The position numbers and the translations under genes are program-made. Below the pieces are notes generated by a model. It made no database searches. It saw only the letters and a list, made by a program, of their open reading frames with translations, and was not told where the DNA came from. A stretch of DNA of 64,000 nt, taken from assembly GCA_963727765.1 (NCBI GenBank), contig CAVSGZ010000013.1, positions 344,491 through 408,490 on the forward strand, given 5' to 3'. Source of the DNA: an uncultured Acidobacteriota bacterium (lineage in GTDB: Bacteria > Acidobacteriota > Vicinamibacteria > Vicinamibacterales > Fen-181). This document shows, piece by piece, positions 8,121 to 34,617 of the stretch; within the stretch, counting starts at the first letter, position 1, and the number at the start of each line of letters is the position of its first letter.

Positions 8121-8546
8121 TCAGCGCTTCGACTCCAGCGCCTTCACCCTGTTCGGCGCATGTGCGGGCAGCTTGCGGTAGCAGTCACACGTCTCTCGCC
8201 GCCTGCCGGACCGCACGTCGGCCAGCACGCACTTCATCCCCAAGTGGAGCGGCCCGGTTTCATACGCGATCCGCTTGCCGTCATCCCAAAACATCCACTG
8301 CCAGATGATCGGCTCGCCCTCGATCCGGCGCACGATCCTCCCGTTGTGCGCGATGACCAGTTTGAAGGCAAAGCGCTCGTCTCCGTAACTTGAATCGGGA
8401 GGCGGCCACTTCAGGGCCTACGCTTCGAGCCCGTGGGGGTCATGGACATGCTTGGATTCGGTCGCCTTTTCGTCGGGCAGCTTGAGTTGTGCGTGCACCG
8501 TGAGAACAGCCGTCCCCGGGATCGCGATCAGAAGGAGTCGTGGCAT
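8121..8546 (-). pseudogene. small exported protein of unknown function, interrupted by an in-frame TAG
   Basis: The reverse-strand ATG at 8546 gives MPRLLLIAIPGTAVLTVHAQ..HDPHGLEA, then TAG at 8420..8418. The same frame continues ALKWPPPDSSYGDERFAFKLVIAHNGRIVRRIEGEPIIWQWMFWDDGKRIAYETGPLH.. to the stop at 8121. ORF-track entry 8121..8333 is its tail. Confidence 0.35.
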
Positions 8547-8734
8547 CGACGTACTTCCGGCTTGTGCGGTCGAGGTCAGCACGAACAGAAACCCCGCACC
8601 CCCGCGCCACCAGCCACGCCTCGGTCAGCGACGACGGGCGATATGAAGGCCCTGCGGCCGTGGCGCCGCCGGGGTCCGATCCGACTCTGACACAACTGAT
8701 CTCCGGCACTGGACAGCCAGGAACGGACCGGGCC

Positions 8735-10312
8735 TCAGGCCCGCCCAGAGTTCCTGGCAAACTGCCGGAGCACCTCGGCCCGCTCGCGGGCTTCGGGCTG
8801 GTCGGCCAGCGTGTCGGACGGCCACGGCAGCCGCCAGGTCCAGTTGTGGTTGTCGATGAGCGCGGGCACGTTGATCCGGTCCCGCCAGCCGAAGACGTCC
8901 TGGATCGGCAGCAGCAGGATGTCCGAACCCGAGGCGAACAGGATCTCGAGCAGCACGTCTCTGAGTCCGGGCGTGAACGGCCCTCCGGGATTCTCAAGCG
9001 CGGCCGCGCGCTCGCGGACGCCCGGCGCCTCCAGCACCGCGGCCCGCTCCGCGGCGTCGAGGCCGTCCCACCAGGCCGCAACCGTCTCCGTGTCGTGGGT
9101 GCCCGAGGTCGCCATCGACACGGCCGTGTACGCCGCCGGGTCCCGGTAGGGGCGGCCCGGCTGATCCCAGTGGCGCTCCCACCGGAAGACCTTGCAGCCG
9201 GGCACGCCGAGCCGCGCGATCGACTGCCGGACGAAGTCGGGGACCGTGCCGAGGTCCTCGGCGATGATCCGCGCGTCCGACCCGGCGAAGATCGAGAGCA
9301 CCTTCTCGCCGAGCGCAAGTTGCGCGGGCTCGTCGGCCGGATCGAAGCGCGCGGGAGACCCGTCGCGCGGGAAGAGACAGGTGCGATAGAACCCCACCAG
9401 GTGATCCACCCGGTAGCCGTCGTAGAGCGCCGCCGTTCGGAGCGCCCGCCGCCGCAGCCAGCCGAAGTCGCGGGCGGCGAGTTCGTCCCACGCGTAGGCC
9501 GGCATGCCCCAGTTCTGCCCGGTCGCGCTGAAGGCGTCAGGCGGTGCGCCGATCGACACGTCCAGGCGGAACGACGAGGCGTCGGCCCAGACATCGGCGC
9601 TGTCGCCGTCGACCATGAACGGCAGGTCGCCAAACAGGCAGAGCGGGCGCGCGCGCGCTTTCGCCTCGCGCCACTGCAGGTCCGCCAGCAACTGCAGCCA
9701 CTGCCGGTAGCGCATGTCGGCGGCCAGCTCCCGGGCGGCGCCGACCAGCGCTTCTGGTTCCCGGTTGCGGAGCGGCGCCGGCCACTCGTGCCAGGGCCGC
9801 TCGCCGAAACGCGCGTGCAGCGCGCGGAAGAGCGCGTACTCGTCGAGCCACCAGGCCTGGCTGACGCGCCACGCGTCGAAGGCGTCGGCTTCCTGCGCTC
9901 CCCCGCCCGCCGATCGACGCTCGAACTCCGCGAACGCGGCCCGGAGCGCCGGCTCCTTCACGCTCCTGACGAGCGCGTGATCGATCACCGGCGACCGGCG
10001 TGCCGCGTCCAGCCGCTCCCGCCACTCGCCACCCATCGCCGCCTCGCCGCCCAGGTCCTGGAATTCAGGGATCGTGCCGACGCTGATGAAGATCGGGTCG
10101 ACCGCCATCGCGCTCATCGCGGAATAAGGCGACCGCTGGCCGACCGCCATCTCATGAATCGGGAGAAGCTGCAGCAGGTCGAAGCCGGCCTCGCGCAGCC
10201 ACGAGGCGAACGCCGGGATGTCGCTGATCTCGCCGATGCCCCAGCTCGCGCGGGCGGGGATCGAGAAGAGCGGCACGAGCAGCCCGGCGTGTCGGCCTGA
10301 GGCAAGTGGCAT
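8735..10312 (-). CDS. malQ: 4-alpha-glucanotransferase (amylomaltase, GH77)
   Basis: From ORF 8735..10324, with the start moved to ATG 10312 (GAGGA 6 nt upstream). Carries the GH77 blocks GIGEISD, LLQLLPIHE, FGDLPFMVDGDSADVW, GAPPDAFSATGQNWGMPAY, YRVDHLVGF, IAEDLGTVP and SGTHDTET. Confidence 0.9.
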   Translation of the reverse strand: MPLASGRHAGLLVPLFSIPARASWGIGEISDIPAFASWLREAGFDLLQLLPIHEMAVGQRSPYSAMSAMAVDPIFISVGTIPEFQDLGGEAAMGGEWRERLDAARRSPVIDHALVRSVKEPALRAAFAEFERRSAGGGAQEADAFDAWRVSQAWWLDEYALFRALHARFGERPWHEWPAPLRNREPEALVGAARELAADMRYRQWLQLLADLQWREAKARARPLCLFGDLPFMVDGDSADVWADASSFRLDVSIGAPPDAFSATGQNWGMPAYAWDELAARDFGWLRRRALRTAALYDGYRVDHLVGFYRTCLFPRDGSPARFDPADEPAQLALGEKVLSIFAGSDARIIAEDLGTVPDFVRQSIARLGVPGCKVFRWERHWDQPGRPYRDPAAYTAVSMATSGTHDTETVAAWWDGLDAAERAAVLEAPGVRERAAALENPGGPFTPGLRDVLLEILFASGSDILLLPIQDVFGWRDRINVPALIDNHNWTWRLPWPSDTLADQPEARERAEVLRQFARNSGRA

Positions 10313-10320
10313 CGGGTTCC

Positions 10321-11484: not shown

Positions 11485-11546
11485 CTATCTACGTTAGACT
11501 AGCTCTCAGGCGGGGCAACAGTGTTTTCCGCCGGGGCCGCTACGTC

Positions 11547-12466
<920 letters not shown>

Positions 12467-15069: not shown

Positions 15070-16455
15070 TCAGCGCGCGAGCGCTTCAACGTCCTCCATC
15101 TCGATCGGAATCGGCTTCCCGAGTATCCGGCAGCCGGTGTCGGTGATGACCACGTCGTCCTCCACGCGGATGCCGCCGAAGCCGCGGAACTTGTCGATCA
15201 CGTCGTAGTTGAGGAAATCGGTGAACTTCCCCTCGGCCCGCCACTTGTCCATCAGCGTCGGGATCATGTAGATGCCCGGCTCGACCGTCATCACGAAGCC
15301 TGGCTCGAGCGCGCGTCCCATGCGCAGCGACTTGAGGCCGAACTGCGTGCTGCGCGTCACCGTGTGGTCGTACCCGACGTGCTGCTCGCCCAAGCCCTCC
15401 ATGTCGTGCACGTCGAAGCCCATCATGTGGCCGAGGCCGCACTGGAAGAACATCGCGTGCGCCCCCTCGCGGACGGCCGCGTCGAGATCGCCCTTCATGC
15501 AGCCGATTGCCTTGAGGTCCTCGGCCAGGCTGCGGCAGGCGAGCAGGTGGACGTCCATCCACTTGACGGCCGGCTTCGCGGCGGCCAGCGCCTTCTTGTG
15601 CGCGCGGAGGACCGCCTGGTAGAGGTCGCGCTGCGGGCCGACGAACTTCCCGCCGATCGGAATCGTGCGGGTGATGTCGCTCGCGTAGTGCAGCGGCGAG
15701 TCGCCGCCCGAGTCGTTGACCGCCATCTGCCCGGCCTGCATCAGGTTGTCGTGCGAGTGGTTGTGCAGCGTCTCGCCGTGCACCGAGAAGATGATCGGGA
15801 AGGAGAGCTGCGCCCCGCGCGACTCGACCAGGCCGGCCATCGCGCCGGCCACCTCGCGCTCGTACATGCCGGGCCGGGCGATCTTCATCGCGAGCACGTG
15901 CATGTCGTGGGCCAGGTCGACGGCGGCTTCGATCTCGCAGATCTCCTCCGGCCCCTTGTAGGCGCGCTGCGCCACGACGGCCTTGACGAGCGGGATCGAT
16001 GCGTGCGCGTTCACCATGCCCGGACGGATCCCCACGTGGTAGGTGATGACCAGCACGTTGTCGTGGCGGTACTGGGGCAGGTAGTGAATGCGCCGCCCCT
16101 GCCGAACCGCCGCGTCGAGCGCCGCCGCAAGGTCTTTCCGCGAGCCGGTGGCGGTGACGCCCGCCTTCGCGGCTCGCTCCGCGATGGTCGGCTGCGGCCC
16201 GCGCCAGACGATGTCGTCGATTGTGAAGTCGTTGCCGTAGATAGTGTGCGTGCCGGCATCAACGTCGATGACGGCGGCCAGCTCCGGGTCGTCGAGGCCC
16301 CAGTAGTAGAGGAACGACGAGTCCTGCCTGAAGTGGTAGGTGTTATCGGTGTAGTTCATCGGCGAGTCGTTGTTGCCGATGAAGAGGAGCAGGCCGCGCT
16401 TGAACTGCTGCTGCAGCTTGGTACGGCGCGTGGTGTAGATCGTGGCGTCGAACAT
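15070..16455 (-). CDS. Xaa-Pro aminopeptidase (M24B family)
   Basis: ORF 15070..16455, with GGGAGGA upstream of the ATG. Has an N-terminal AMP_N-like domain and the pita-bread metal-ligand blocks VNDSGGD..SDITRT, GLGHMMGFDVHD, TVEPGIY and IRVEDDV. Confidence 0.85.
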   Translation of the reverse strand: MFDATIYTTRRTKLQQQFKRGLLLFIGNNDSPMNYTDNTYHFRQDSSFLYYWGLDDPELAAVIDVDAGTHTIYGNDFTIDDIVWRGPQPTIAERAAKAGVTATGSRKDLAAALDAAVRQGRRIHYLPQYRHDNVLVITYHVGIRPGMVNAHASIPLVKAVVAQRAYKGPEEICEIEAAVDLAHDMHVLAMKIARPGMYEREVAGAMAGLVESRGAQLSFPIIFSVHGETLHNHSHDNLMQAGQMAVNDSGGDSPLHYASDITRTIPIGGKFVGPQRDLYQAVLRAHKKALAAAKPAVKWMDVHLLACRSLAEDLKAIGCMKGDLDAAVREGAHAMFFQCGLGHMMGFDVHDMEGLGEQHVGYDHTVTRSTQFGLKSLRMGRALEPGFVMTVEPGIYMIPTLMDKWRAEGKFTDFLNYDVIDKFRGFGGIRVEDDVVITDTGCRILGKPIPIEMEDVEALAR

Positions 16456-16478: not shown

Positions 16479-19131
16479 TTAGCGGCCTCCGACAATCGTC
16501 GCACTCTGCGTGAGCTTCAGCTCGCCGGCCTGTATCGTCACGACATAGCTGCCCGGCGCGACCTGGCGCTCGTGGGCATCGCTCATATCCCAGCTTGCCC
16601 GGTTCATGCCGGCTTCACCGGAGCCTGTGAGCGTCCTAATCTCATTGCCCGACATGTCGACGACCGCGATCTTCACTCCGCCGTCGGCCTTGTCCTTCAG
16701 GTAGTAGTCGAAGTTCAACCCGTCGTCGTTCGGGACGAGCAGCGCACGGTCGCCGTAGAACTCGAAGTTGCCGAGCGGCCCCGGCGCCGGCAGCGGGCGC
16801 GGCTGCACGGCGAAGAAGTGCGCGGGGCCGTCGAACGCCCCCTGCTTCGCCTCGGCCACCCACGCGGTGTTCGCGATGTAGAGACCGCGGCCGTAGGTCG
16901 CCACGACCAGGTCGCGCTCCCGCGGGTGGATCAGCATGTCTGTCACCGGCACGGCAGGCATGTTCCCCTTCAGCGCCACCCACCGCTGCCCTCCGTCGAG
17001 CGACAGGTAGATGCCCTTGTTGCTGCCGACGTAGAGGATGTCCGGGTCCTTCAGGTCCTCGACAATCACGTCGATCGCCCGGTCGGCGAGGTTCGCGGAG
17101 ATCGATGTCCACGTGGCGCCGAAATCCGTCGTCTTCATCACCACGGGTTTGAACTCGTCGAACCGTCGCCCGTTGCGCGTCACGTAGGCCGTGCCCGACG
17201 CGAAGGCCGACGGCAGGACGCGCGTGGTGGCGTAGTAGGCCGGGCCGCCTCCGGCCGCCACGACCTTCGCCGTCGCGTCCGTCCATGTGGCCCCGTGATT
17301 GCGCGTCACCTGCACCTTGCCGTCGTCGGTCCCGACCCAGATGACGCCCGGCGTGACTGGCGACTCGGCAATCGTGGTGATCGTGCAGGTACTGGACCGT
17401 TGCGCCCGGCGGCGAGATCTTCGACGTGTCGTTGCCGGTCAGGTCGGGGCTGATCTCTTCCCAGTGATCGCCTTGATCGACCGACTGGAACAGCACCTGC
17501 GCGCCGGTGTAGATGATGTGGCTGTTGAACGGCGACAGCGCGAGCGGCGGTGTCCAGTTCCAGCGCAGCGGCGGCTGGCCTGGCGCTCGCATGGGGGTGA
17601 TTGCCTTGCGCATCCTGGTCCGCTGGTCGAGCCGGTAGTGCCCGCCCCACTGGAACGTGTTGTAGACCCAGCGGCTGTCGTTCGGATCGACCCGGTTGTA
17701 CTGGCCATCGTTGTCGCCCACCGTCACCCAGTCCTCAGGCCCGACGCGCCCAGCCGGCCCGTTGATGGGGCCCCGCCACGAGTCATGGTCCTGCAGGCCG
17801 CCGTAGATGTGATACGGGCGATCCATGTCAACGGCAATCGAGTAGAACTCGCCGCCCGGGATGTTCGAGTAGTGGTCGCACGTCCTGCCGGCGTCGTAGG
17901 AGATGTGGACGCCGCCGTCGCTGCCAAGGATCCAGCGGTCGGAGTTCTGCGGGTCGATCCACATCGTGCGGAAGTCGCCGAACCCCTTGGCGAACAGGTT
18001 CCTCGCGTCCCACGTGAGGCCCTTCCACGTCCTGCCGCCGTCCTCCGAGCTGAGCAGCGAGTCGCAGTTGACGATGATCCGCCTGTCGTTGTTCGGATCG
18101 ACCCGGATCTGATTGAACGAGTACCCCGCCTTCGAACTCACGTCGTCGGTCGCGGCGTTCATCTTCCGCCACGTCCTGCCGCCGTCGTCGGTTCGGTAGA
18201 CCTCGCCGCCGATCGCCCTCGGTTGCGGATCCTGGCCGCGTGCACGATCGCGCTTCGCCTCCTGCTCCGTCGGCGGACGGGTGGCGAAGTTCTCGGTCAC
18301 CGCGTAGAGGATTTCGGGGTTCTTCTGGTAGATGTCGAGGCCGATTCGGCCCTGCTTCGCGGGCAAACCGGCCGTCAGCTTCTTCCAGGTCCTCCCGCCG
18401 TCGGTCGTCTTGAAAATGCCGCTGCCCTCTCCGCCCTCCAGGAGTTTCCACGGCCGTCGCTGCACGTCGTACATCGCCGCGTAGAGCGTGTCGGGGCGCT
18501 TGCGGTCGAGCACGAGGTCGATGGCGCCGGTCCGATCGTTGAGGTAGAGGACCTTCTTCCAGGTCTTTCCGCCGTCGGCCGTCTTGAACACGCCGCGCTC
18601 CTCGTTGGTCGACCAGAGGCGGCCCATCGCCGCGACGTAGACGATGTCGGGGTTGGTGGGATGGACGACGATGCGGCCGATGTGCTGCGTCTCGCGCAGC
18701 CCCATGTGCTGCCAGGTCTTGCCCGCGTCGATCGACTTGTAGACGCCGTCGCCCGGGTAGGCCACGCGCACGCTTGACGCGTCGCCGGTGCCGACCCAGA
18801 CGATGTTCTCATTCGACGGCGCGACGGCGAGGCAGCCGATGTCGGTGACATCCTGCGCGTCGAAGATCGGCTGGAACGTGGTGCCGTTATTGGTCGTTTT
18901 CCAGACACCGCCGTACCGGACCGCGACGTAGAAGGTGTAGAGGTGCGACTTCTCTGGCGCCTCGGGCACGGCGATGTCGGAGACCCAGGAGCCAGCGCGG
19001 TACGGGCCAAGCGCGCGATACGTGAAGCCGGCCAGCTTGTCTTCGGTGAACGAGCGCGTCGGCGACTGCGCAAGGGCGGTGACGCTGGCAGTGGCCAACA
19101 GGAGGAGGCCGAGCGCGATTCTGGTTCTCAT
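16479..19131 (-). pseudogene. secreted sortilin/VPS10-type BNR (Asp-box) repeat beta-propeller protein; frame broken by one extra nt near 17388
   Basis: Signal peptide MRTRIALGLLLLATASVTALAQ from ATG 19131. Has many SxDxGxTW Asp-boxes (SIDAGKTWQ, TADGGKTWK, TTDGGRTWK, SEDGGRTWK). The N-terminal part is ORF 16642..19176 up to ..GATVQY, and the C-terminal part is ORF 16479..17315. The span is 2653 nt, which is 3n+1. Confidence 0.8.
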
Positions 19132-19140
19132 GATCACGTC

Positions 19141-19168
19141 CTGAGTCCTGAGCCTTGAGCCCTGAGCC
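19141..19168 (-). repeat. 28-bp tandem heptamer array (GGCTCAG GGCTCAA GGCTCAG GACTCAG)
   Basis: Four 7-nt units read on the minus strand, ending 10 nt upstream of the ATG at 19131. A near-identical copy lies at 20611..20638. Confidence 0.8.
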
Positions 19169-19172
19169 TCTT

Positions 19173-20459
19173 TCATGCCACCGCCTTGTCAATCGCCGGA
19201 CTGGGCGTCGTGAAGAACTTCGGGCCCTGCTCGGTCATGTGGAAACAGTCCTCGATGCGGATCCCGAACTCGCCCGGAAGAACGAGCATCGGCTCGTCGC
19301 TGAAGCACATGCCGGGCGCGAGCTTCGTCTTGTTGCCGCGCACGAGGTTGGTCCACTCGTGCCCGTCCATGCCGATGCCGTGTCCCGTCCGGTGCGGCAG
19401 GCCCGGCAGCTTGTAGTCGGGGCCGAAGCCGTGCTCGGCGTAAAGTTTCCGCGGTGCCGCATCCACGTCCTCGCACGCCGCGCCGAGCTTCGCCGCGGCG
19501 AACGCCGCCGCCTGGCCGCGCTTGACGAGATCCCAGATCTCCCGCTGCCGCCTGGTCGGCGCGCCGACGACGACCGTGCGGCTCATGTCGGAGTGGTAGC
19601 CATCCACCGTGCAGCCGCCGTCCATGAGAACGATGTCGCCTTCGCGGAGCGGGCGGCTCTTGATGCTCCCGTGTGGCGAGGACGTCATCTCCCCGAAGGT
19701 GGCGCCGATGCCGCCCTCCGCGCCGAGCGCATGATGCGCGGCAACGGCCAGCGCGCCGAACTCCTCTTCGGTCATGCCCGGCTTGAGCAGCGGGATAATC
19801 GCGCGGTACGCCTCGTTGGTGATGTTGTTCGCGCACTGCAGGAGCGCGATTTCCTTGGGCGTCTTGAAGATGCGACAGCCGGCGGTCACCGGGGTCCCGC
19901 TGACGATCTCCACGGCGGGCGCAGCCTTGCGAAGGCCGTCCGACACGAAGAACCGCGCGTACTCCTCGAAGCCGACGCGCGAGACGCCGCGGTCCTTCAG
20001 CGCCTGGGCGATTCGCTCGAACGGGCTCTCGTGCTCCTCCCACGTGCGCACGTCGCTGCCGATCGTGATCAACTCGCGCGCCCTGCCTTCCTCGAACTTC
20101 GGGCAGACGTAGGCCACCTCGCCGCGCGCCGGCAGGATGGCGACGAATGTCCGCTCGCTCGGCCACCAGCTCACGCCGGTGAAATATACGAGGCTCGTGC
20201 CCGAGTCGAGAATGATGGCGTCGATCTTGTTCTCGACCATCAGGCGGCGCGCCTTCTCGACGCGCGCCTTCCGGTCCTCGGTATCGATCCGGACGATGCC
20301 GCCGGTCATCGGCTTGAGGTGGCTGAACGGGCCGGCTGAAGCGGGCGTGGCTTGCGGCGCCGCGCCCGTGCCCGGCACGAGCGCCGCGGCATCCAGTGTG
20401 ACCCCCGCCCCGACGGCCAGGGCTGAAGACTGCAGGAATCTACGTCTGTCGATCGACAT
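19173..20459 (-). CDS. M24 family Xaa-Pro dipeptidase-like peptidase with Tat signal
   Basis: Internal ATG at 20459 of ORF 19173..21284, giving 428 aa. Has the twin-arginine signal MSIDRRRFLQSSALAVGAG and the M24 ligand blocks MDGGCTVDGYHSDMSRT, HRTGHGIGMDGHE, FSDEPM and IRIEDC. Confidence 0.85.
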   Translation of the reverse strand: MSIDRRRFLQSSALAVGAGVTLDAAALVPGTGAAPQATPASAGPFSHLKPMTGGIVRIDTEDRKARVEKARRLMVENKIDAIILDSGTSLVYFTGVSWWPSERTFVAILPARGEVAYVCPKFEEGRARELITIGSDVRTWEEHESPFERIAQALKDRGVSRVGFEEYARFFVSDGLRKAAPAVEIVSGTPVTAGCRIFKTPKEIALLQCANNITNEAYRAIIPLLKPGMTEEEFGALAVAAHHALGAEGGIGATFGEMTSSPHGSIKSRPLREGDIVLMDGGCTVDGYHSDMSRTVVVGAPTRRQREIWDLVKRGQAAAFAAAKLGAACEDVDAAPRKLYAEHGFGPDYKLPGLPHRTGHGIGMDGHEWTNLVRGNKTKLAPGMCFSDEPMLVLPGEFGIRIEDCFHMTEQGPKFFTTPSPAIDKAVA

Positions 20460-20487
20460 GGTCGGCTCCAGGATACTGACGCGCGCA

Positions 20488-20522
20488 GGCTTCGGGCTCC
20501 AGGCTTCAGGCGGCGGGCTGAG
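20488..20522 (+). repeat. tandem heptamer array (GGCTTCG GGCTCCA GGCTTCA GGCGGCG GGCTGAG) with embedded hairpin
   Basis: Five 7-nt units on the plus strand. GGCTTCAGGCG (20502..20512) pairs with CGCCTGAAGCC (20523..20533). It lies in the 5' leader of the Tat-M24 gene. Confidence 0.6.
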
Positions 20523-20610
20523 CGCCTGAAGCCGGATCATACGTCCCCCGGAGGGGTTGGGGCGGTTTTTCTCGAGCGCTGCCATCTGGCCGTCGTTCGC
20601 GCAGCGCCCC

Positions 20611-20638
20611 CTGAGCCCTGAGCCTTGAGCCCTGAGCC
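20611..20638 (-). repeat. 28-bp tandem heptamer array (GGCTCAG GGCTCAA GGCTCAG GGCTCAG)
   Basis: Differs at one position from the 19141..19168 copy. It lies 152 nt upstream of the ATG at 20459, in the divergent spacer shared with the histidine kinase gene. Confidence 0.8.
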
Positions 20639-20720
20639 CTTTCCCCTCCCCCATCCGGGTGACCCATTTCGCGAAAGCCGGGTGATGTGCGATGCTGCGC
20701 CCAACTCGTAGAGTGGGCGC

Positions 20721-22799: not shown

Positions 22800-25230
22800 C
22801 TATTTCTTGTTCTCCACCGCCATCGCATCCATCAGCCACACGCCGCGCCCGTGCGTCGCAATCGCAATCATCTTGTCGCGCGGCTGGATGTTCAGGTCGA
22901 GCACGAACACCTGCGGCAGGTTGCCGCCCAGCACGTTCCACGTCGCCCCGCCGTCGGTCGTGACGTAGACCCCCATGTCGGTCCCCACGTAGAGGATCTT
23001 CGGATTGGTGGGATCCTCGCGGATCACGTTCACCGGCCCGGCCGGGATGTTGCCCACGATGCTCTTGAACGTCTTGCCGAAGTCGGTCGACTTGTAGATG
23101 TAGGCCGCGAACTCGTCGTCTCGCTTCCCGTTCTGGGTCACGTAGACGGTGCCCTCGTTGAAGGCCGACGGCGTCACGCGCGAGATCCATTTGCGCTGCG
23201 GCAGGTTGGCCGTCAACTCGGTCCACGCCTTCCCGCCGTCCCTCGTGACCCACAGCCGCCCGTCGTCGGTGCCGGCGTAGAGAAGTCCGAAGCGCATCGG
23301 CGATTCGGCCAGCGCGAACAGCGTCTGGTACGGGATGTCGCCGAACATCTTCGGATCGTTGCCGGTCAGGTCCGGGCTGATCCGCTCCCAGGTGTCTCCC
23401 TGGTGCATCGAGCGGAAGACGTACTGGAGCCCGTGGTAGACGATGTCGGGGTCGTGCGGCGAGACGATGGTCGGCGCCATCCACTGGCCGCGCAGCGCCG
23501 GTTCGCCAGGCCCGACCTTCGGCATGATGTTGGCAACCTCGAACGGCGCCGAACCCCAGAGCGTGCGGCTCCGGGCTGGTTTGGTCACGTCGGCACGGTC
23601 GAGGTTCCCGTAATAGCTCGAGGCGTAGATGATGTCGTTGCTGCTCTTGTCGATCGCGTGCGTCGTCCCCTCGCCGCCGAGCGTTTCTTCGAACGCCTGC
23701 GTGGGGATCTTGTCGCGCCCCTTGCTCAGGTCGACGACGGCGCGGTAGCTGCCGTGGTCCTGCACCGAGCCGTAGACGCGCAACGGAGTTCCGTTGTCGA
23801 ACTCGATGTTGAAGAAGGTGGAGATCGGCAGGTTGTCGATGAACAGACGCCACGTCTTGCCGCCGTCGTACGAGATCACCACGCCGCCGTCGTTGCCGTC
23901 GATCAGGTTGTCGGGATTGGCCGGGTCGATCCAGAGCGCATGATGGTCTGTGTGGGGTCCGCGCAGGGCCTTGAACGTCCTGCCGCCGTCGGTGGACTGG
24001 TTGAGCATCAGCCCCTGGAAGTAGACGACGTTTTCGTTTGTCGGGTCGACGCGGATCTGCGAGAAGACCCATCCGTAGGTCGCCGCCGCCCCTTCCATGA
24101 ACGCGTTCGACTCGCTCACCTTCCGCCAGGTCTGTCCCTTGTTGTCTGACCGGTAGATCTCGGCGCCCCTGATCGTCCCCTCCTTCTGCCGGCCTGTACG
24201 AGTCCAGATCGCCCGGCTTGGCCTGGTGCGCGATCTCGTAGTCGTCCACGAAGGCATAGACGACGTTCGGGTTCGATCGCGCGATGTCGATGCCGATGCG
24301 GCCGCGGTGATCGGGCACCGGGAGGCCCTCGTTGATCGGTGTCCAGGTCTTGCCAGCGTCGATCGTCTTCCAGATGCCGCTGCCGGTATAGCCCTTCAAG
24401 GTGCGCGGGTCGTTCCACTTCTGCCGGATGCGCTGCCAGGTGGTCGCGTACAGGATATTCGGGTCGGTGGGGTCCATCACGAGGTCGTTCGCCCCGGTCT
24501 TCGCATCGACGTAGAGCACCTTCGTCCAGCTCTTGCCGCCGTCGGTCGTCTTGTAGACGCCGCGGTCTTCGTTGTCGGTCCACTCGTGTCCGCCGGCCGC
24601 GACATACACGATGTCCGGGTTGGTCGGGTGAATGATGATGCGTGGGATGGTGTGGGTCGAGGCGAGGCCCATGTGCTGCCACGTCTTGCCCGCATCGGTC
24701 GACTTGAAGATGCCGACGCCGGCGTTCGAGCTGCGGAAGATGTTGGCCTCACCGGTGCCGAACCAGACGATGTTCGGATCAGACGGCGCGACTTCGACGT
24801 TCCCGCCCTGCACCGATGCCGCCTGGTCGAACGCCGGTTCGAATGTGGTCCCCTCGTTCTCGGTTTTCCAGAGGCCGCCTGAGGCCGTTGCGACGTAGAT
24901 GATCCGGGTCTTGCCCTTGCGGTTGGCGACCGCCACGTCGACGACGCGACCGCTGATGCTGGTCGGCCCGAAGAACTGCCACTTCAGGTCTTTGAAGGGT
25001 GAGTTGCCGCGCATCGAGACGAACGAGTCCCAGGCCTTGAGGCGGAACGCCGCATCGGCCACGGAAGATGCGGGACCGGCGGTCGAGGCGGCGGCGGTTG
25101 CCGCGGCTTTCGGTGGTTGCGCCTTGGCGGCCGGCGCCTGGGCGGACACGGGTTGCGAAACGCTCAGTGCCAGGACAGCGAGGACGCCAAGCACTGGGGC
25201 CGTGCGGTTGAGGCAACGGAAGTTGGTCAT
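22800..25230 (-). pseudogene. secreted sortilin/VPS10-type BNR (Asp-box) repeat beta-propeller protein (paralog 2); frame broken by one extra nt at 24186..24195
   Basis: Signal peptide MTNFRCLNRTAPVLGVLAVLALSVSQPVSAQA from ATG 25230. Has Asp-boxes STDAGKTWQ, TTDGGKSWT, TIDAGKTWT, STDGGRTF, SYDGGKTW and TTDGGATW. The N-terminal part is ORF 22753..25341 up to ..GDLDSY, and the C-terminal part is ORF 22800..24257. The span is 2431 nt, which is 3n+1. Confidence 0.8.
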
Positions 25231-26138: not shown

Positions 26139-27092
26139 GTGACCTGCGCAGCCTGGACCGACCCGGCGTTTCTCGGGATGCCCGACATCCAGGGGACCAT
26201 CCTGCGGATCGAGCGTTTCGCCATCCACGACGGCCCCGGCATCCGCACCACCGTGTTCCTCAAGGGCTGCCCGCTCCGCTGCGCATGGTGCCACAGCCCG
26301 GAGAGCCAGTCGACTCATCCCGAGTTCATGCCGCACAAGGACCGGTGCGTCCAGTGTGCCTCCTGCACGGACGCCTGCCCGTTCCACGCGGCCCCGCCGG
26401 CGGCGAGCGACGGCCCGGTGGCGCCCGCCGAGTGCACGACCTGCGGCGCCTGTGCCGAGGCGTGCCCGACGGGCGCGCGCGAGCTGGTCGGCCGGACCAT
26501 GAGCATCGAGGCCCTGATGGCCGAGATCGAGCGCGACCGCATCTTCTACGACGAGTCGAACGGCGGCGTCACCTTCTCGGGCGGCGAGCCGTTCATGCAG
26601 CCGGTCTTCCTGGCCAACATGGCCCGGTCCTGCCGCGCCGCCGGGATCCACGTCGCCATCGAGACCTGCGGCCACGCCGACACGCGCGCGCTGCTCGACG
26701 TCGCCGACGACACTGACCTTTTCCTGTTCGACCTGAAACTGCTCGACGATCGGCGTCACCGTGAATACACCGGCGCGTCCAACGTCCTCATTCTCCGCAA
26801 TCTCGAGCGGTTGATCGAGACGCCCGCCGAGATCCGCGTCCGCTTCCCGCTCATCCCGGGCGTCAACGACGACGACGGCAACGTGCGCGCCGTGGGCGCG
26901 CTGCTAGCCTCGCTCGGACTGACCCGGATCGACGTGCTGCCCTATCACCGCGCGGGGCTGGCCAAGTACGACCGGCTGCACCGCTCGTACCGACTTCCCG
27001 AGACCGAGCCGCCGACCGCCGATCGGCAGACCCACGTGGTCCGCCTCCTCGAGTCGTGCGGGCTCATCGTGCAACCAGGAGGAGCGTCATGA
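26139..27092 (+). CDS. glycyl-radical enzyme activating protein (radical SAM)
   Basis: ORF 26139..27092, with a GTG start preceded by AGGGGA and an alternative ATG at 26178. Has RFAIHDGPGIRTTVFLKGCPLRCAWC (CX3CX2C), the two ferredoxin-type motifs CVQCASCTDACP and CTTCGACAEACP, and GGVTFSGGEP. Its stop overlaps the GRE start. Confidence 0.9.
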   Translation: MTCAAWTDPAFLGMPDIQGTILRIERFAIHDGPGIRTTVFLKGCPLRCAWCHSPESQSTHPEFMPHKDRCVQCASCTDACPFHAAPPAASDGPVAPAECTTCGACAEACPTGARELVGRTMSIEALMAEIERDRIFYDESNGGVTFSGGEPFMQPVFLANMARSCRAAGIHVAIETCGHADTRALLDVADDTDLFLFDLKLLDDRRHREYTGASNVLILRNLERLIETPAEIRVRFPLIPGVNDDDGNVRAVGALLASLGLTRIDVLPYHRAGLAKYDRLHRSYRLPETEPPTADRQTHVVRLLESCGLIVQPGGAS

Positions 27093-29447
27093 CCGAGCGC
27101 GTAGCCAGGCTGCGCCAGGAGAGCCTCGACCGCCACCCCACGCTGTCGACCGAGCGCGCCGAGCTGATGACGGCGTTCTACCGTGAGGCCCCGTCTGCAT
27201 CGCTGCCGATCCTGCGGGCGCTCTCGCTGCAGTACCCTGATGGCGCGCAAGGCGCTGTGCATCATGCCGGGCGAGCTGATCGTCGGCGAGCGCGGACCCA
27301 CGCCCAAGGCGACGCCCACCTACCCCGAACTGTGCTGCCACACCCTCGAGGACCTCGACATCCTGGACTCGCGCGAGAAGATCTCCTTCGCCGTCGACGA
27401 CCACGCGCGCGCGGCGTACCGCGACACCGTCATCCCGTACTGGCGCGAGCGCTCGATGCGCCACCGGATGTTCCACGAGCTTCCCGACGCGTGGAAGCAC
27501 GCCTACGAGGCCGGCGTTTTCACCGAGTTCATGGAACAGCGCGCGCCCGGCCACACGGTGGCCGACGGGAAGATCTACGCGAAAGGCCTTGCCGGGCTGC
27601 AGGCGGACATCGACCGCGAGCTGGCCGCGCTCGACGACCTGCACGATCTCGACGCGTACGACAAGCGGCAGCAGCTCAAGGGCATGCGGATCGCCGCCGA
27701 CGCGGTGATCCACTTCGCGCGGCGCCACGCCGTGGAGGCCGCGCGCCACGCCGCCGCCGAGGCCGACCCGGTCCGGAAGGCAGAACTCGAGCAGATCGCC
27801 GCCACCTGCACGTGGGTCCCCGAACACCCGGCGCGCACCTTCTGGGAGGCGCTCCAGGCCTACTGGTTCATGCACCTCGGCGTGATCACCGAGCTGAACA
27901 CGTGGGACTCGTTCTGCCCGGGGCGGCTCGACCAGCACCTCTATCCCTACTACAAGCGCGAGATCGAAGCCGGCACGCTGACGCGCGAGCGGGCGAAGGA
28001 ACTCCTGCAGTGCTTCTGGGTGAAGTTCAACAACCAGCCGGCGCCGCCCAAGGTCGGTGTCACGGCGGCCGAGAGCGGCACCTACACGGATTTCGCCAAC
28101 ATCAGCAACGGCGGCCTGAAGGCCGACGGCAGCGATGGCGTCAACGAGGTCTCGTACCTCCTCCTCGAGGTCATCGACGAGATGCGCCTCCTGCAGCCAT
28201 CGTCGAACATCCAGCTGAGCAAGAAGAGCCCGGACCTCTTTCTCAAGAAGGCGTGCGAGGTCATCCGGAAGGGCTGGGGCCAGCCTTCGATCTTCAACGC
28301 CGACATGGTGGTGGCCGAGCTGGTGCGGCAGGGCAAGGCGGTCGAGGACGCGCGGTGCGGCGGGACGAGCGGCTGCGTCGAGGCGGGCGCGTTCGGCAAG
28401 GAAAGCTACATCCTCACCGGCTACTTCAACCTGCCGAAGGTCATCGAGATTACGCTCAACGACGGCTACGACCCGCGCACCGAGCGGCAGATCGGGCCGA
28501 AGACGGGCGACCCGTCCGCGTTCACGACGTTCGAAGAATTCCTCGACGCGTTCAGGCGCCAGCTCCAGCATTTCATCGACGTGAAGATCGCCGGCAGCCA
28601 AGTCATCGAGCGGATGTACGCGACGATGATGCCGGCGCCGTTCCTGTCGATCATCACCGACGACTGCATCAGAAACGGCCGCGACTACAACGCCGGCGGC
28701 GCCCGCTACAACACCCGCTACATCATGCCGGTCGGGCCGGGCACGGCGGCCGACAGCCTCTCGGCCATCAAGTACCACGTGTTCGATCACGGCCACGTCA
28801 CGATGCCCGCGCTCGTCAAGGCGGTGCGCGACGACTTCGTCGGCCACGAGAGCCTGCGCCAGCTGCTGCTCAACAAGACGCCCAAGTACGGCAACGACGA
28901 GGAGTACGCCGACGCGTTCGTGACGCTGCTGTGCGACGAGCTGTTCCACCGGATCGACGGGCGGCGGGGGCCGACCGGATCCACCTACCACGTCAACTAC
29001 CTGTCGACCACGTGCCACGTGTACTTCGGATCGGTGTGCGGCGCGACACCCGACGGCCGCCACGCCTGGGTGCCGGTGTCCGACGGCATCTCCCCCGCGC
29101 ACGGCGCGGACCGTCACGGCCCGACGGCGGTCATCAAGTCGGCCTCGCGCATGGATCACGCGCGCAGCGGCGGCACGCTGCTCAACCAGAAGTTCACGCC
29201 GGCGCTGCTCGAGGGGCAGGAGGGGATCGACCAGCTCGCCCACCTCGTGCGGGCGTATTTCAAGCTCGACGGGCACCACATCCAGTTCAACGTGGTGACG
29301 GCCGACACGCTTCGCGCCGCGCAGAAGGAACCGGAGAAGCACCGCGATCTGATCGTCCGCGTCGCCGGCTACAGCGACTATTTCTGCGATCTCACCAAGG
29401 GGCTGCAGGACGAGATCATCGAGAGGACCGAGCAGAAGGGGTTCTGA
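27089..29447 (+). pseudogene. hypD: glycyl radical enzyme, trans-4-hydroxy-L-proline dehydratase (HypD)-like; frame broken by one extra nt at 27236..27239
   Basis: ATG at 27089 (AGGAGG upstream) reads MTERVARLRQESLDRHPTLSTERAELMTAFY..ILRALSLQY, then shifts +1 into ORF 27183..29447. Carries EFMEQRAPGHTV, WVKFNNQPAPPKVG, GGTSGCVEAG (Cys/Glu), NAGGARYNTRYI and the glycyl site LIVRVAGYSDYF. The span is 2359 nt, which is 3n+1. The HypD assignment rests on recalled family motifs, not on a search. Confidence 0.8.
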
Positions 29448-29483: not shown

Positions 29484-30809
29484 ATGAGACGCCTTTCGAA
29501 GTCGCTGTCGTTCGCCGCGGCTCTTACCCTCCTGGGTTCGGTCGCATTTCTCGCCACTGACGTCGGCGCGCAGCGCGCGCCAGCCCCCCAGGCCGCGTCC
29601 GAGAGCTGGCTGATTCGTCCGCAGCAGGTCTTCGACGCGACCAGCGAGCAGGCCCATCCCGGCTGGGTCGTCCTCGTCACCGGGAACACGATCGCCGCCG
29701 TCGGCCCGACGGCCTCGGTCACGCCGCCGGCCGGTGCGCACACGGTCGATCTGCCGGGCATGACACTGCTGCCCGGCCTCATCGAAGCCCACACGCACAT
29801 CTTCCTCCACGCCTACAACGAGACCACCTGGAACGACCAGGTGCTGAAGGAGTCGGAGGCCTACCGGACCATCGAAGCGGTGAAGCACTGCGAGACCACG
29901 CTGCTCGCCGGGTTCACCACGCTTCGCGATCTCGGCACCGAAGGCGCGGGCTTTGCCGACGTGGACGTGAAGCGCGCCATCAACGAGGGCCTGATCCCGG
30001 GGCCGCGCCTGTTCGTCGCCACGCGGGCCATCGTCGCAACCGCCAGTTACGGCCCTGGGCCGTTCGGTTTCGCGCCCAACGTGGACACGCCGAAGGGCGG
30101 GCAGGAAGTGAGCGGCGTCCCCGAGATGCTCAAGGCGGTCCGCGAGCAGATTGGCCACGGCGCCGACTGGGTGAAGCTGTACGCCGACTATCGCCGCGGC
30201 GCCGGTCCCTCGGTGCCGACCTTCAGCCTCGACGAGCTGAAGGCGGCGGTCGAGGAGGCCCACAGCGCGGGCAAGCCGGTCTCCGCGCACGCCTCCACCA
30301 CGGAAGGCATGCGGCGCGCGGTGGTGGCCGGCGTCGACACGATCGAGCACGGCTACGGCGGCACCGACGAGGTGTTCCGGATGATGGCCGAGCGCAACGT
30401 CGCGTTCTTCCCGACGCTGACAGCCGTCGAGGCCTCCGCCGAATACTCAGGCGCCTACAAGCGCGGCGGCGCGCCAACCCGCTCGATGGAGCAGGCAAAG
30501 CAGGCGTTCCAGCTCGCGATGAAGAACCACGTGGTCATCGGCCTCGGCGGCGACATCGGCGTCTACAACCACGGTGAGGACTACCGCGAGGCGGAGTGGC
30601 TCGTGCGCGACGGAATGACGCCCGTGCAGGCGCTGCTCGCGGCGACGGCCGTCAACGCGAAGGTGCTGCGCCAGGCCGACCGGATCGGCACGATCAGGCC
30701 AGGCCTGCTGGCCGATCTCGTGGCGGTCCCGGGCGACCCGACATCCGACATCACGACGCTCGAGAAGGTGGCGTTCGTGATGAAGGACGGTAAGATCTAC
30801 AAGCGATAG
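29484..30809 (+). CDS. amidohydrolase family protein (COG1228-like, possible Xaa-Pro dipeptidase), secreted
   Basis: ORF 29484..30809, with TATAAT at 29470..29475. Has the signal peptide [30 protein letters not shown], the metal-binding motif [13 protein letters not shown], and the later motifs VSAHA, DTIEHG and PGLLADLV. Confidence 0.8.
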
Positions 30810-30817
30810 AGATCGGG

Positions 30818-31519
30818 ATGTCCACTTCGCGCACGCTCGCCGACACCGCCTACGTTCGCCTTCGCGACAGCATCGTCACGCTCAGGCTGGCGCCGGGCGC
30901 CCGGCTCACCGAGGTCGAGCTCGGCCGGCGCCTCGGCATCAGCCGGACGCCTGTTCGTGCGGCGCTGCTCCGTCTTCACCAGGAGGGGCTGGTCGAGACG
31001 CGCGGCGTGAAGCGGTCCGGCCGCGTCACGGTGGCCCCAATGACCGCCGCCGACATGCGCGAGCTGTTCCTCATGGTCGGCGCGCTCGACGGCGTGGCGG
31101 CGCGGCTGGCCGCCGAATTGCCCGAGACGCCGCGGCGGGCCGTGGCCGGCGAAGCCCAGGCGATCAACGCGCGCCTCCGGGCCCTCTCCGGGACAGGGGC
31201 CGCCGACATCCGCGCCGCGCAGGAGCTGGATATCGCATTCCACCGCTGTTACGAACAGGCGGCGTCGGGGCCGCGGCTGCTCGCGAAGCTGGCCGCCCTG
31301 CACGCCCGACGGGAGCGCTACGTCCGCGTGTACACGGAGGCGCTCTTCCACACGCACCACGAGCAGGAGTCGCTCGACGAGCACGGCGCCATCGTGGCGG
31401 CCATCTCGCGCGGAGACGCCGAGGCGGCCGAACGGCACGCCGTGTTCAATCACCGGAACGCGCTCGAGCGGTACCGGCGAATCGCCGCGAGCCGCGGCGA
31501 TCGCGAGGGTTGGAATTGA
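30818..31519 (+). CDS. GntR family transcriptional regulator (FCD subfamily)
   Basis: ORF 30818..31519. Has the HTH YVRLRDSIVTLRLAPGARLTEVELGRRLGISRTPVRAALLRLHQEG. It is paralogous in layout to 25326..26129 and lies 8 nt after the amidohydrolase stop. Confidence 0.85.
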   Translation: MSTSRTLADTAYVRLRDSIVTLRLAPGARLTEVELGRRLGISRTPVRAALLRLHQEGLVETRGVKRSGRVTVAPMTAADMRELFLMVGALDGVAARLAAELPETPRRAVAGEAQAINARLRALSGTGAADIRAAQELDIAFHRCYEQAASGPRLLAKLAALHARRERYVRVYTEALFHTHHEQESLDEHGAIVAAISRGDAEAAERHAVFNHRNALERYRRIAASRGDREGWN

Positions 31520-31544
31520 CCACGTCACTCGACGGGAGACGATT

Positions 31545-32729
31545 ATGTCGCTCATTCAAGAGAAGATCGCCCAGGCCGCACTCATCCTGAGGGAACTCGA
31601 TATCCCCTGCTGGCTCACCTTCGTGCGCGAGACGGGCATGAACGGCGATCCCGTGATGCCGTTTCTCGCGCCGTCCCAGCTCACCTGGCACAGCGCCCTC
31701 CTCGTGATGGCCGACGGAGAGGCGTACGCCATCGTCGGCGAGTTCGAGCGCAAGACGATGGAGGACACCGGGGCCTACCGGCAGGTCGAGGGCCACGTGC
31801 AGGGCGCGAAGGCGCCGCTGCTCGAGTTCCTGCGGAGCCGGAACCCGGCATCGATCGCCATCAACTACTCGACCGACAGCGAGGTCTGCGACGGCCTGAC
31901 GCACGGGATGTTCCTCACGCTGCAGTCCTGGCTCGCCGAGATCGGGTTCGAGAAGCGCCTCGTGTCCGCCGAGCGGATCGTCTCGACGCTGCGCGCGCGG
32001 AAGACCGACGAGGAACTGGGGCGCATGAAGACCGCCATCCTCCTGACCGAGGAGATCTTCGGAAAGGTCGGCCGGTTCCTGGCGCCGGGCGTCACCGAGC
32101 GCGACGTCGCGGGCTACGTGGCGGCCCAGGTCAAGGACGCCGGCCTCGAGGTCGCGTGGGAGCCCGGCACCTGCCCGGCCGTCTTCACGGGGCCCGACAC
32201 GGCGGGCGCGCACTACTCGCCCACCGGCCGCCAGGTCGAGCGCGGCCACATCGTCAACATGGACTTCGGCATCAAGTACCGCGACTACTGCGCCGACCTG
32301 CAGCGGACCTGGTACGTCCTCCGCGACGGTGAATCGGTGGCGCCCGCCGAGGTGCAGCGCGGCTTCGACACGATCGTGCGGGCGATCGAGGAGTCGCGAA
32401 AGGCCCTCAAGCCCGGCGTGACCGGACAGGCGGTCGACGAGGTGGCCAGGACGCTCATTACCGGCGCCGGCTACGCCGAATTCCCGCACGCGCTCGGCCA
32501 CCAGGTCGGCCGCTACGCCCACGACGGCACGGCGATCCTCGGCCCGGCGTGGGAGAAGTACGCCCGCCGGCCGTTCGTGCCGGTCGAGGCCGGCATGGTG
32601 TTCACGCTCGAGCCGCGCTTGACAGTGCCCGGCTACGGCGTCGCGACGGTCGAGGAAATGGTGGTGGTCACGCCGACCGGGGCGGAGTTCATGTCGGGGC
32701 CGCAGACCGAGCTGATTCTCATCCGCTAG
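31545..32729 (+). CDS. M24 family metallopeptidase (Xaa-Pro peptidase-like), cytoplasmic
   Basis: ORF 31545..32729, with no signal peptide. Has the ligand blocks NMDFGIKYRDYCADLQRT, HALGHQVG, FTLEP and TVEEMVV. Confidence 0.85.
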   Translation: MSLIQEKIAQAALILRELDIPCWLTFVRETGMNGDPVMPFLAPSQLTWHSALLVMADGEAYAIVGEFERKTMEDTGAYRQVEGHVQGAKAPLLEFLRSRNPASIAINYSTDSEVCDGLTHGMFLTLQSWLAEIGFEKRLVSAERIVSTLRARKTDEELGRMKTAILLTEEIFGKVGRFLAPGVTERDVAGYVAAQVKDAGLEVAWEPGTCPAVFTGPDTAGAHYSPTGRQVERGHIVNMDFGIKYRDYCADLQRTWYVLRDGESVAPAEVQRGFDTIVRAIEESRKALKPGVTGQAVDEVARTLITGAGYAEFPHALGHQVGRYAHDGTAILGPAWEKYARRPFVPVEAGMVFTLEPRLTVPGYGVATVEEMVVVTPTGAEFMSGPQTELILIR

Positions 32730-32785
32730 GCGCACCTGTCGCCGGCCGGATGCAACCTTCACGCGCCGCGCTGCGTATTGCAGGT

Positions 32786-32977
32786 ATGTGGCTCGTGAAG
32801 ACATCCGGCCTCATCGCCATCACGTGCGCGGTGCTTGCCGTGTCGGCGATCTGGTTGGTGCTGAGTGACCCGATCGCCGTGGCAACGGCCGTGCAGGCGG
32901 GCGACCTGTCTTCGGCCTACACCCTCGTTTCCCACGCCTTTCTCGAAGCCCTCCGGACGCTGCTGAAGTACCTCTAG
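32786..32977 (+). CDS. small hydrophobic protein (hypothetical)
   Basis: Internal ATG of ORF 32549..32977. MWLVKTSGLIAITCAVLAVSAIWLVLSDPIAVATAV.. contains one clear TM helix. No other support. Confidence 0.3.
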   Translation: MWLVKTSGLIAITCAVLAVSAIWLVLSDPIAVATAVQAGDLSSAYTLVSHAFLEALRTLLKYL

Positions 32978-33023
32978 GGCCACCGCGCCCCGGGGTCCGC
33001 CGGCCCGTGATAGCATCCTCGCC

Positions 33024-34617
33024 ATGGTGACCAGACCTTCCCGTCGCGTGCTGCTGGCAGCCCTCGCCGTTGCCCTCGCCCTCGCCGGCGCGACGTCGGT
33101 GCCGGCCCAGCCGGCACCGGCTGTCGGTGCGCTTCCCGCCGACTTCGATGCCTACGTCCAGCGGGTCATGAAGTCGTTCGATGTTCCCGGCCTCGCGGTC
33201 GCCGTCGTGAAGGACAACGGTGTGGTGCTGGCCAGGGGATACGGCGTCCGCAAGATGGGCGACCCTGTACCTGGTCGACGCGAAGACGCTCTTCGGCATC
33301 GCGTCGAACACCAAGGTGTTCACGGCCACGGCGCTCGGACTGCTGGTCGAGCAGGGCAAGCTCCAGTGGGACGCGCCGGTCGTCAACTACCTGCCCTGGT
33401 TCCAGCTCTACGACGCCTGGGTCACGCGCGAGCTGACCATCCGCGACCTGCTGGTCCACCGAAGCGGCCTCGGCCTGGGCGCGGGCGACCTGCTCTGGTG
33501 GCCTCCCAGCACGTACAACCGGAGCGAGATTGCCGCGCGCCTGCGGTACATCAGGCCGGCGACGAGCTTCCGGAGCGCGTATGCCTACGACAACGTGCTC
33601 TATCTCGTGGCAGGCGAAGTGATCGAAGCCGTCAGCGGCCAGTCATGGGAGGATTTCGTGTCCTCGCGCATCCTCGCGCGAGTGGGCATGACGAACAGCA
33701 ACGTCCGGCACTCGTCGGCGGTCTCCGGCGGTAACGTCTCGACGACGCACGCCGTCGTCGACGGAAAGGTGCAACCGATTTCGCCGTTCGTCAGCGACAA
33801 CACGAACCCGGCGGGCGGCATCAACTCCTGCGCCGAGGACATGGCGAAGTGGCTCAAGCTGCTGCTCGCCGAGGGTCAGCTGTCGGATGGATCCCGGCTG
33901 TTCGGCGCTGCGACCTGGCGGCAGATCTCGACGCCGGTGACGCCCGAGCCGAACAACCCGCCGCCTCCTGATCTGCCGGCTCTCCGGTCGAACTTCCGGG
34001 GTTACGCCCTCGGCCTCGAAGCCCGCGACTTCAAGGGATACAAGGTGCTCACGCACACGGGCGGCCTTCCAGGCTACGTCTCCCGCGTGCTGATAATCCC
34101 GGATCTCAAGCTCGGCGTCGCGGTGCTGACCAACCAGGAGTCCGGCGAGGCGTTCGACGCGATCGCCTACGCCGTGGCCGACGCCTACGCGGGCGGCGCC
34201 CGCACCGACTGGCTGGCCGGCTACGAGAAGATCCACGCGCGGACGGCTGCGGCCGTGGCCGAGGCCGACCGCAAGACAACGTCAGCGCGCAACAGCGAGT
34301 CGAAACCGTCGCTGCCGCTGGCCGCCTACGCCGGCACGTATCGCGACGCGTGGTACGGCGACGTCGCCATCGCGGTCGAGGACGGGAAGCTCGTCATCCG
34401 GTTCACGAAGACGCCCGCGCTTGTCGGCGAGCTCCAGCACTGGCAGCACGACACGTTCGTCGCCAGGTGGCGCGATCGCGAGTTGCGCGCCGACGCGTTC
34501 GTCACCTTCGCCCTCAACCCGGACGGCACGATCGACCAAGCGAAGATGCGGGCGGTGTCGCCGTCCACCGATTTCAGTTTCGATTTTCAGGATTTGCTGC
34601 TCAGGCCCGTGAAGTAA
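33024..34617 (+). pseudogene. beta-lactamase-fold serine hydrolase (class C / PBP-like), secreted; frame broken by one extra nt at 33264..33273
   Basis: ATG at 33024 reads MVTRPSRRVLLAALAVALALAGATSVPAQ..VVKDNGVVLARGYGVRKMGDPVP, then shifts +1 into ORF 33220..34617. That part reads VDAKTLFGIASNTKVFTA (SxxK nucleophile motif) ..YDNVLY... The span is 1594 nt, which is 3n+1. Confidence 0.8.

Follow-up and report, generated by a model that had tools for sequence, protein, structure and literature searches.

We describe four broken reading frames in a 64,000-nt stretch of DNA from an uncultured Acidobacteriota bacterium (GenBank assembly GCA_963727765.1, contig CAVSGZ010000013.1, positions 344,491 to 408,490 of the forward strand), which is referred to in its entirety as the window. 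The affected genes encode two BNR/Sortilin-Vps10 proteins (BNR1 and BNR2), a glycyl-radical enzyme (GRE), and a serine hydrolase of the beta-lactamase fold. Each frameshift adjoins the palindrome GTAC, each is corrected by removal of a single base, and the surplus bases are missing from other, nearly identical assemblies. We conclude that the frameshifts are probably long-read-only consensus errors at GTAC, most likely resulting from modification of GTAC in the organism.

Four genes carry one base too many next to GTAC

Coding frames were assigned by Viterbi segmentation on codon-position G+C (GC3). The segmentation indicated four same-strand changes of frame without an intervening stop or start, at 17380/81, 24189/90, 27235/36, and 33263/64, and a GTAC adjoined each of them, at 17389, 24196, 27232, and 33267, respectively. 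The genes concerned are as follows.

16479..19176, minus strand: BNR1, BNR/Sortilin-Vps10 protein with a C-terminal FlgD_ig domain (Pfam, repaired protein)
22800..25230, minus strand: BNR2, BNR/Sortilin-Vps10 protein (Pfam)
27089..29447, plus strand: GRE, 785 aa after removal of one base (Pfam PFL-like and Gly_radical)
33024..34617, plus strand: serine hydrolase with Beta-lactamase and DUF3471 domains (Pfam, repaired protein)

A first-pass annotation made from the sequence had claimed that four genes each contain one surplus base, that each surplus lies at a GTAC, and that GTAC is scarce, occurring once every few hundred bases. Three-frame translation placed the joins where that annotation had put them, all four genes needed the identical correction of one base too many, and removal of that base gave full-length Pfam matches for all four proteins. 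With a G+C content of 68%, the window has 145 GTAC sites, or 1 per 441 nt, in line with the first-pass estimate. As each shift can be placed within approximately 10 nt, the probability of overlap with a GTAC is approximately 0.03 per site, and a four-of-four overlap is expected by chance with a probability of approximately 1e-6. We conclude that the association of the four frameshifts with GTAC, also part of the earlier claim, is far beyond chance.

Closely matching assemblies lack the surplus bases

Other assemblies were retrieved by exact-protein look-ups of neighboring genes, and orthologues from other species were included for comparison.

GCA_965012915.1: eight contigs of 3-22 kb (L001, L003, L007, L012, L016, L017, L018, L020)
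ENA ERZ25039473 contig_26760 (the ERZ contig): 288.6 kb, in pieces L002, L004, L006, L010, L011, L015, L019
Further copies: Logan contigs (ERR11594402, including L008; ERR11748453) and one ERZ19048064 scaffold
Orthologues in other species, by GRE identity: L021 (PMKG01000048.1, fen_299 metagenome-assembled genome [MAG]), 93%; L022, 85%; L023, 72%

The retrieved assemblies were 99.5-100% identical to the window, and GCA_965012915.1 and the ERZ contig, at 99.5-99.9%, represent the same Acidobacteriota population. The closest match in a scan of GTDB species representatives, among which the species of the window itself was absent, was a fen Acidobacteria MAG with 93% GRE identity. The exact product of an amidohydrolase gene (29484-30809) was also looked up for more contigs, and none was on record because the window differs there by single-nucleotide polymorphisms (SNPs) from the other assemblies.

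At each of the four frameshifts, the window carried a base that the other sequences lacked.

17388..17392, minus strand: extra base in BNR1; window GCAGGTACTGG, GCA_965012915.1 GCAG-TACTGG
24195..24199, minus strand: extra base in BNR2; window GGCCTGTACGAG, others GGCC-GTACGAG
27232..27237, plus strand: extra C in the GRE gene; window CAGTACCCTGATG, others CAGTACCTGATG (Q Y L M); in a shorter rendering at 27235, window CAGTACCCTG, other assemblies CAGTACCTG
33267..33273, plus strand: extra C in the hydrolase gene; window CCTGTACCTGGTC, others CCTGTA-CTGGTC (D P V L V D); in a shorter rendering at 33270, window CCTGTACCTGG, other assemblies CCTGTA-CTGG

Without the extra base, the sense strand of BNR1 reads CAG TAC TGC (Q Y C), and the base was missing both from GCA_965012915.1 (L003) and from the ERZ contig (L002/L004/L010), which reads GCAGG-ACCGG at the site. 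The corrected sense strand of BNR2 reads TCG TAC GGC CGG (S Y G R), and the T at 24195 was missing from GCA_965012915.1 (L012), the ERZ contig (L002/L004/L010), and the orthologues L022 and L023. The extra C of the GRE gene was missing from L017 (GCA_965012915.1), L004/L010 (ERZ contig), and all three orthologues (L021, L022, and L023), and that of the hydrolase gene was missing from L001 (GCA_965012915.1) and L010 (ERZ contig), with the orthologues L021 and L022 also one base shorter at the site. The first-pass annotation had proposed a comparison with orthologues, and the relatives L021, L022, and L023 indeed had one base fewer at the three sites covered (BNR2, GRE, and hydrolase). Moreover, tblastn against the relatives returned GRE, hydrolase, and BNR2 each as a single in-frame high-scoring segment pair (HSP): the HSP for BNR2 in L022 spans residues 14-846, and the hydrolase gave one HSP in L021 and one in L022. 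We conclude that the four frameshifted genes are intact and that the extra bases are artefacts of the window assembly.

The remaining same-strand changes of frame in the Viterbi segmentation all corresponded to stop/start gene boundaries (10331, 12461, 13323, 16505, 19177, 22078, 27073, 30804, 31500, 48648, 49403, 59903, 60489, 62085, and 63367), and none of them coincided with an indel relative to GCA_965012915.1 where that assembly covers them. Surplus bases were also found at two GTAC sites between genes.

6445..6448: extra G at GTAC; window CCCCAGGTACTTCG, others CCCCAG-TACTTCG
34623..34633: four extra bases round the GTAC at 34626, located in the hydrolase-S9 peptidase intergenic spacer; window GGGGTCGCGTACCACTTTG, others GGGGT-G-GTACCA--TTG

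The site at 6445 lies upstream of the start of a 302-aa gene and breaks no gene. Its extra G was missing from GCA_965012915.1 (L007), the ERZ contig (L002/L006), and the Logan contig L008 from ERR11594402, and L008 carries the window's local SNP alleles yet is one base shorter at 6445. The site at 34623-34633 showed the identical four gaps in L001 (GCA_965012915.1) and L010 (ERZ contig). Both insertions were invisible to the first-pass annotation because they are non-coding. As far as assembled sequence can tell, the four frameshifts and the two non-coding insertions are all GTAC-specific artefacts of the window assembly.

Every indel between the window and GCA_965012915.1 lies at GTAC

The comparison between the window and GCA_965012915.1 spanned 52,185 nt and 123 GTAC sites and indicated 58 substitutions and six indel events. 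Each of the indels was located within 1 nt of a GTAC (binomial p = 5e-10) and consisted of additional sequence in the window, and no indel away from GTAC was found over the 52,185 nt. The same result over these shared 52 kb is consistent with the view of the first-pass annotation that the remaining genes are intact. Three of the six events represented one and the same change, CAGTAC to CAGGTAC (6445, 17389, and, on the reverse strand, 33270), for which the true heptamer core is CAGTAC[T/A]. Three substitutions also touched GTAC, two of them at 41772 and 59090. The window and GCA_965012915.1 differed by approximately 0.1% SNPs, and thus, they are not the same clone.

We note that at 41772 and 59090 (and also at 40967), GCA_965012915.1 has GTACGAG but both the window and the ERZ contig have GTACCAG, and that the same G>C change after GTAC occurs in the ERZ contig at 5242 and 44287. 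GTACCAG at 41772 and 59090 is probably a recurrent substitution-type miscall of GTAC that was left in the window.

An assembly of the same haplotype errs at other GTAC sites

Of the 55 SNPs that separate the window from GCA_965012915.1, the ERZ contig shared the window allele at 41 and therefore represents the window's haplotype. All six window insertions were absent from it. The ERZ contig had errors of its own at GTAC, which accounted for 16 of its 40 indel events and 21 of its 112 substitutions and were typically T>G or an inserted G. Moreover, 22 of the 112 substitutions were located within 1 nt of GATC and were mostly C>T (p = 3e-9). At these sites, GATC in the window appears as GATT in the ERZ contig (C>T, or G>A when seen from the opposite strand), for example, at 5694, 6474, 9343, 12673, 13639, 31856, 34842, and 57949. 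The pattern suggests that GATC is a second modified motif, one which the window consensus handled correctly. That two consensuses stumble at different copies of the same palindromes is the mark of a systematic error at the level of the reads, close to the decision threshold, and a mutational process would not yield such a pattern of different instances in the window and the ERZ contig.

Where the two could be tested, the window was correct and the ERZ contig wrong, as at 7774, where an inserted G in the ERZ contig wrecks a PEP-CTERM tail that is kept in the window and GCA_965012915.1 sides with the window. A fifth frameshift, in the open reading frame (ORF) at 7211-7900, had been considered, as the ORF is longer in the ERZ contig; this candidate was rejected, since the window ORF has a canonical PEP-CTERM anchor at its end and is supported by GCA_965012915.1.

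Modification of GTAC is the probable source of the errors

GTAC and GATC are 4-bp palindromes and classic methyltransferase targets. We propose that the bacterium modifies GTAC, for example, by Gm6-type adenine or cytosine methylation, and that the modifier would be either a restriction-modification system or an orphan methyltransferase. Modified GTAC would distort the pore signal and cause the same basecaller error in most reads, such that the error would survive consensus. The assembler or polisher from which the window derives would then add one base at some GTAC sites, typically converting CAGTAC to CAGGTAC and GTACCTG to GTACCCTG, and four such errors would have landed inside genes and two between genes. 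The 0.2-1 Mb size of the metagenome contig and the pattern of errors suggest that the window may come from long reads (nanopore type), and the sister ERZ contig bears a Flye-style name. The palindromic nature of the motif, the errors of the sister assembly at GATC, and published work argue for modification of GTAC (and GATC) in the organism: assemblies made from R10.4.1 reads alone retain systematic errors caused by DNA modification, mainly C>T and G>A (PMC11610603), and methylation at the GTAC motif is known from bacteria (PMC12679398).

Nanopore-only methylation-motif errors have been described for Dam/Dcm-type motifs in isolate genomes (PMC11610603), and the errors reported here are alike in being confined to the short palindromes GTAC and, in the sister assembly, GATC; in recurring across assemblies of the same population and surviving consensus; and in the typical C>T at GATC in the ERZ contig. 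They are unlike them in that the window has single-base insertions whereas the literature stresses C>T and G>A, and in that a minority of GTAC sites is affected. Motif-linked error is recognized by lesions that other assemblies lack and by statistical confinement of errors to the motif, and both were found at GTAC. The first-pass annotation had ranked an artefact at GTAC as the leading explanation for all of the gene lesions it listed. That ranking holds for the four frameshifts, where the extra bases are missing elsewhere and all indels are at GTAC, and it fails for an in-frame TAG, which is real (see below).

Several points weigh against modification as the source. The affected GTAC sites amount to approximately 7% (9 of 123, including three adjacent substitutions), and therefore, context or coverage must matter too. 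Most of the motif-linked errors described in the literature are substitutions, with fewer reports of single-base insertions. No DNA methyltransferase was found among the genes called in the other assemblies, which reach 62.4 kb of the window, or in Pfam scans, the last 1.6 kb being unscanned. The comparisons were between assembled sequences, and both the GTAC modification and the platform of the window were inferred. We note that Pfam annotations of the gene calls and scans of unannotated ORFs also indicated no restriction gene in the window, the sole nuclease-like item being an HNH_repeat protein (42692-43522).

The same artefact could arise with no modification, from a bias of the basecaller or polisher at GTAC-containing k-mers or from mixed strains, and we regard this as a less likely but live alternative. 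The artefact is demonstrated where the modification is deduced, and the core CAGTAC[T/A] converted to CAGGTAC in three of the six events could reflect a k-mer-specific weakness of the model. Errors, however, concentrate on the palindromes GTAC and GATC, and the two assemblies err at different GTAC sites whatever the flanks. Moreover, L022, a related long-contig MAG, has the correct sequence in the identical context CCGTACGAG, which argues weakly against a k-mer bias that is organism independent or unconditional. Modification of GTAC remains the preferred source of the error.

It is improbable that the insertions are real and represent strain-specific pseudogenization by a GTAC-aimed mutation, such as self-restriction followed by imprecise end joining. 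The window and GCA_965012915.1 are different clones separated by SNPs, and the TAG indicates at least one real gene lesion in the population, but the ERZ contig has the window haplotype and no insertion, and L008 has the window's local alleles without the insertion at 6445. Moreover, GTAC is kept at every site, where scars of cutting and repair would usually destroy it, and the process would need to have struck four strongly conserved genes while leaving 52 kb free of any other indel. Pseudogenization of the four genes, which the first-pass annotation had listed second, is thus contradicted by two same-population assemblies that lack the lesions. Programmed +1 ribosomal frameshifting after UAC, the last option of the first-pass annotation, would restore proteins from real 3n+1 genes and has a negligible probability: all four genes do need the same +1 correction beside a Tyr codon, but each protein occupies one frame in the near-identical assemblies and in every orthologue examined, and therefore, the frameshift site is not conserved and the first requirement for recoding fails. 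The same extra bases also occur in non-coding DNA (6445 and 34623-34633), and the GTAC of the hydrolase gene is read GTA-C and not as a UAC codon. The likeness to prfB/RF2-type +1 frameshifting is limited to one surplus nucleotide that must be skipped for a full-length protein; unlike that system, the shift is unconserved in orthologues and even in the same strain, there is no in-frame stop or hungry codon at the site (in the zero frame, none of the four sites has a stop codon after UAC), and insertions are also found outside genes. That the extra bases are real at all, through either GTAC-targeted mutation or a UAC-linked +1 recoding by which the four conserved genes stay functional, is very improbable, and it requires that both other assemblies, one of them haplotype matched, come from insertion-free variants.

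In terms of annotation, the two BNR/Sortilin proteins, the GRE, and the hydrolase should stand as intact, and nothing biologically new is encoded. In terms of quality control, a build-up of frameshifts at a single short palindrome marks consensus error linked to a motif, and here, the GTAC signature provides indirect evidence of probable GTAC (and GATC) modification in this lineage. Unpolished long-read MAGs of this kind would mislead pseudogene counts, recoding screens, and metabolic reconstructions, and the CAGTAC-to-CAGGTAC insertion error is worth reporting to those who train basecallers and polishers.

An in-frame TAG is unrelated to GTAC

One further gene is interrupted by a stop codon.

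8121..8546, minus strand: TAG-interrupted 141-codon gene for a small secreted protein; no Pfam family matched
8418..8420, minus strand: in-frame TAG at codon 43, reading GCG TAG GCC

Seven homologues of the gene were found; six of them are 141-150 aa in length and span 80-96% of the query, and the seventh matches the C-terminal part alone. Six of the seven have Trp at the position of the TAG (GLEGWTLE in five and GLEAWTLS in one, where the window reads GLEA*ALK). The identical shortened product of 42 aa occurs in four other assemblies under at least three accessions, namely, the ERZ contig, GCA_965012915.1, one Logan contig, and one ERZ19048064 scaffold. The presence of TAG in four other assemblies and of Trp in homologues indicates a real TGG>TAG nonsense change, and there is no GTAC at 8418-8420. 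We conclude that the TAG is a genuine nonsense mutation unconnected to the GTAC lesions. As is usual for a nonsense pseudogene or polymorphism, one transition (TGG>TAG) affects a conserved Trp and is reproducible in four other assemblies, and no feature out of the ordinary was noted. Reproducibility in the same lineage, by which a true pseudogene is recognized, was found for the TAG and not for the four frameshifts.

The first-pass annotation had placed the TAG in its GTAC/TAC set, as a corrupted TAC (Tyr) codon. This was rejected, as the site has no GTAC, six of the seven homologues have Trp, and four other assemblies concur on TAG. A reading frame of 70 aa lies downstream of the TAG. The gene is located in a stretch with 64% G+C and without the normal GC3 coding signature (6429-8759), which also contains the PEP-CTERM-anchored protein (7211-7900).

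The repaired genes and their neighborhood

BNR1 is intact as an 872-aa call in the ERZ contig. Its start is probably the ATG at 19131, followed by a signal peptide (MRTRIALG..). The ERZ contig has an extra G at 19129, just upstream of that ATG, which alters the called N terminus of the 872-aa product; there is no GTAC at 19129, and no third assembly spans the site. BNR2 is intact at 809 aa in both GCA_965012915.1 and the ERZ contig. In L021, a BNR2 orthologue at the contig end (2-638) aligns in two frames (-3 and then -1), a sign that this unrelated MAG may carry a frameshift or an assembly error there. The hydrolase reading frame is open in L001 from the contig end through the site (502 aa).

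The repaired GRE matched PF02901 (PFL-like) over 1-647 of 647 positions as well as PF01228 (Gly_radical), and it was 100% identical over all 785 residues to the protein of GCA_965012915.1 (P0008). Most of the 120 homologues listed for GRE are also 785 aa in length, and the join, LSLQYLMARK, aligned gap free to the 120 listed homologues. Directly upstream of the GRE gene is that of its activase.

26139-27092: GRE radical-SAM activase (Radical_SAM Pfam match)

The PFL-like domain, C-terminal glycine-radical domain, and neighboring radical-SAM activase are those of a glycyl-radical enzyme. The names given to homologues in the source, from which alone a substrate was taken, suggest that the GRE is trans-4-hydroxy-L-proline dehydratase-like. 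The names attached to these homologues also indicate a Vicinamibacterales-like member of the Acidobacteriota. Within the GRE gene, the ERZ contig (L004/L010) differs from the window at 27577-29216 by dozens of substitutions, many of them G<->C, and by approximately 14 single-base insertions, mostly not at GTAC. GRE is called there as fragments of 206 aa and 142 aa, and GCA_965012915.1 agrees with the window, which suggests that this stretch of the ERZ contig is either badly polished or strain chimeric.

The four frameshifted genes, including the HypD-like GRE, and the GRE activase are located in a region (15070-36798) that also contains three M24 peptidases of AMP_N or Creatinase_N type (15070-16455, ~19173-20540, and 31545-32729), an S9 prolyl-oligopeptidase-type enzyme, an amidohydrolase, two GntR/FCD regulators, and a two-component system. 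The content of the cluster suggests catabolism of peptides, proline, or hydroxyproline. In the spacer upstream of the histidine kinase, a short tandem repeat (20616-20640) with units like GAGCCCT/TGAGCCC differs in both length and sequence between the window, Logan contig L005, and the ERZ contig, where it is 6 nt shorter.

Finally, the genome's GC3 signature was missing from 41176-43742. A 178-nt direct repeat, 90% identical between its copies (41440-41617 and 42272-42449), flanks an ORF (41626-42249) with a weak, sub-threshold Pfam match to a nucleotidyltransferase family (Aminoglyc_resit), and this ORF adjoins the HNH_repeat protein (homing-endonuclease-associated repeat) at 42692-43522. 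The stretch at 41176-43742 may be a small acquired island.

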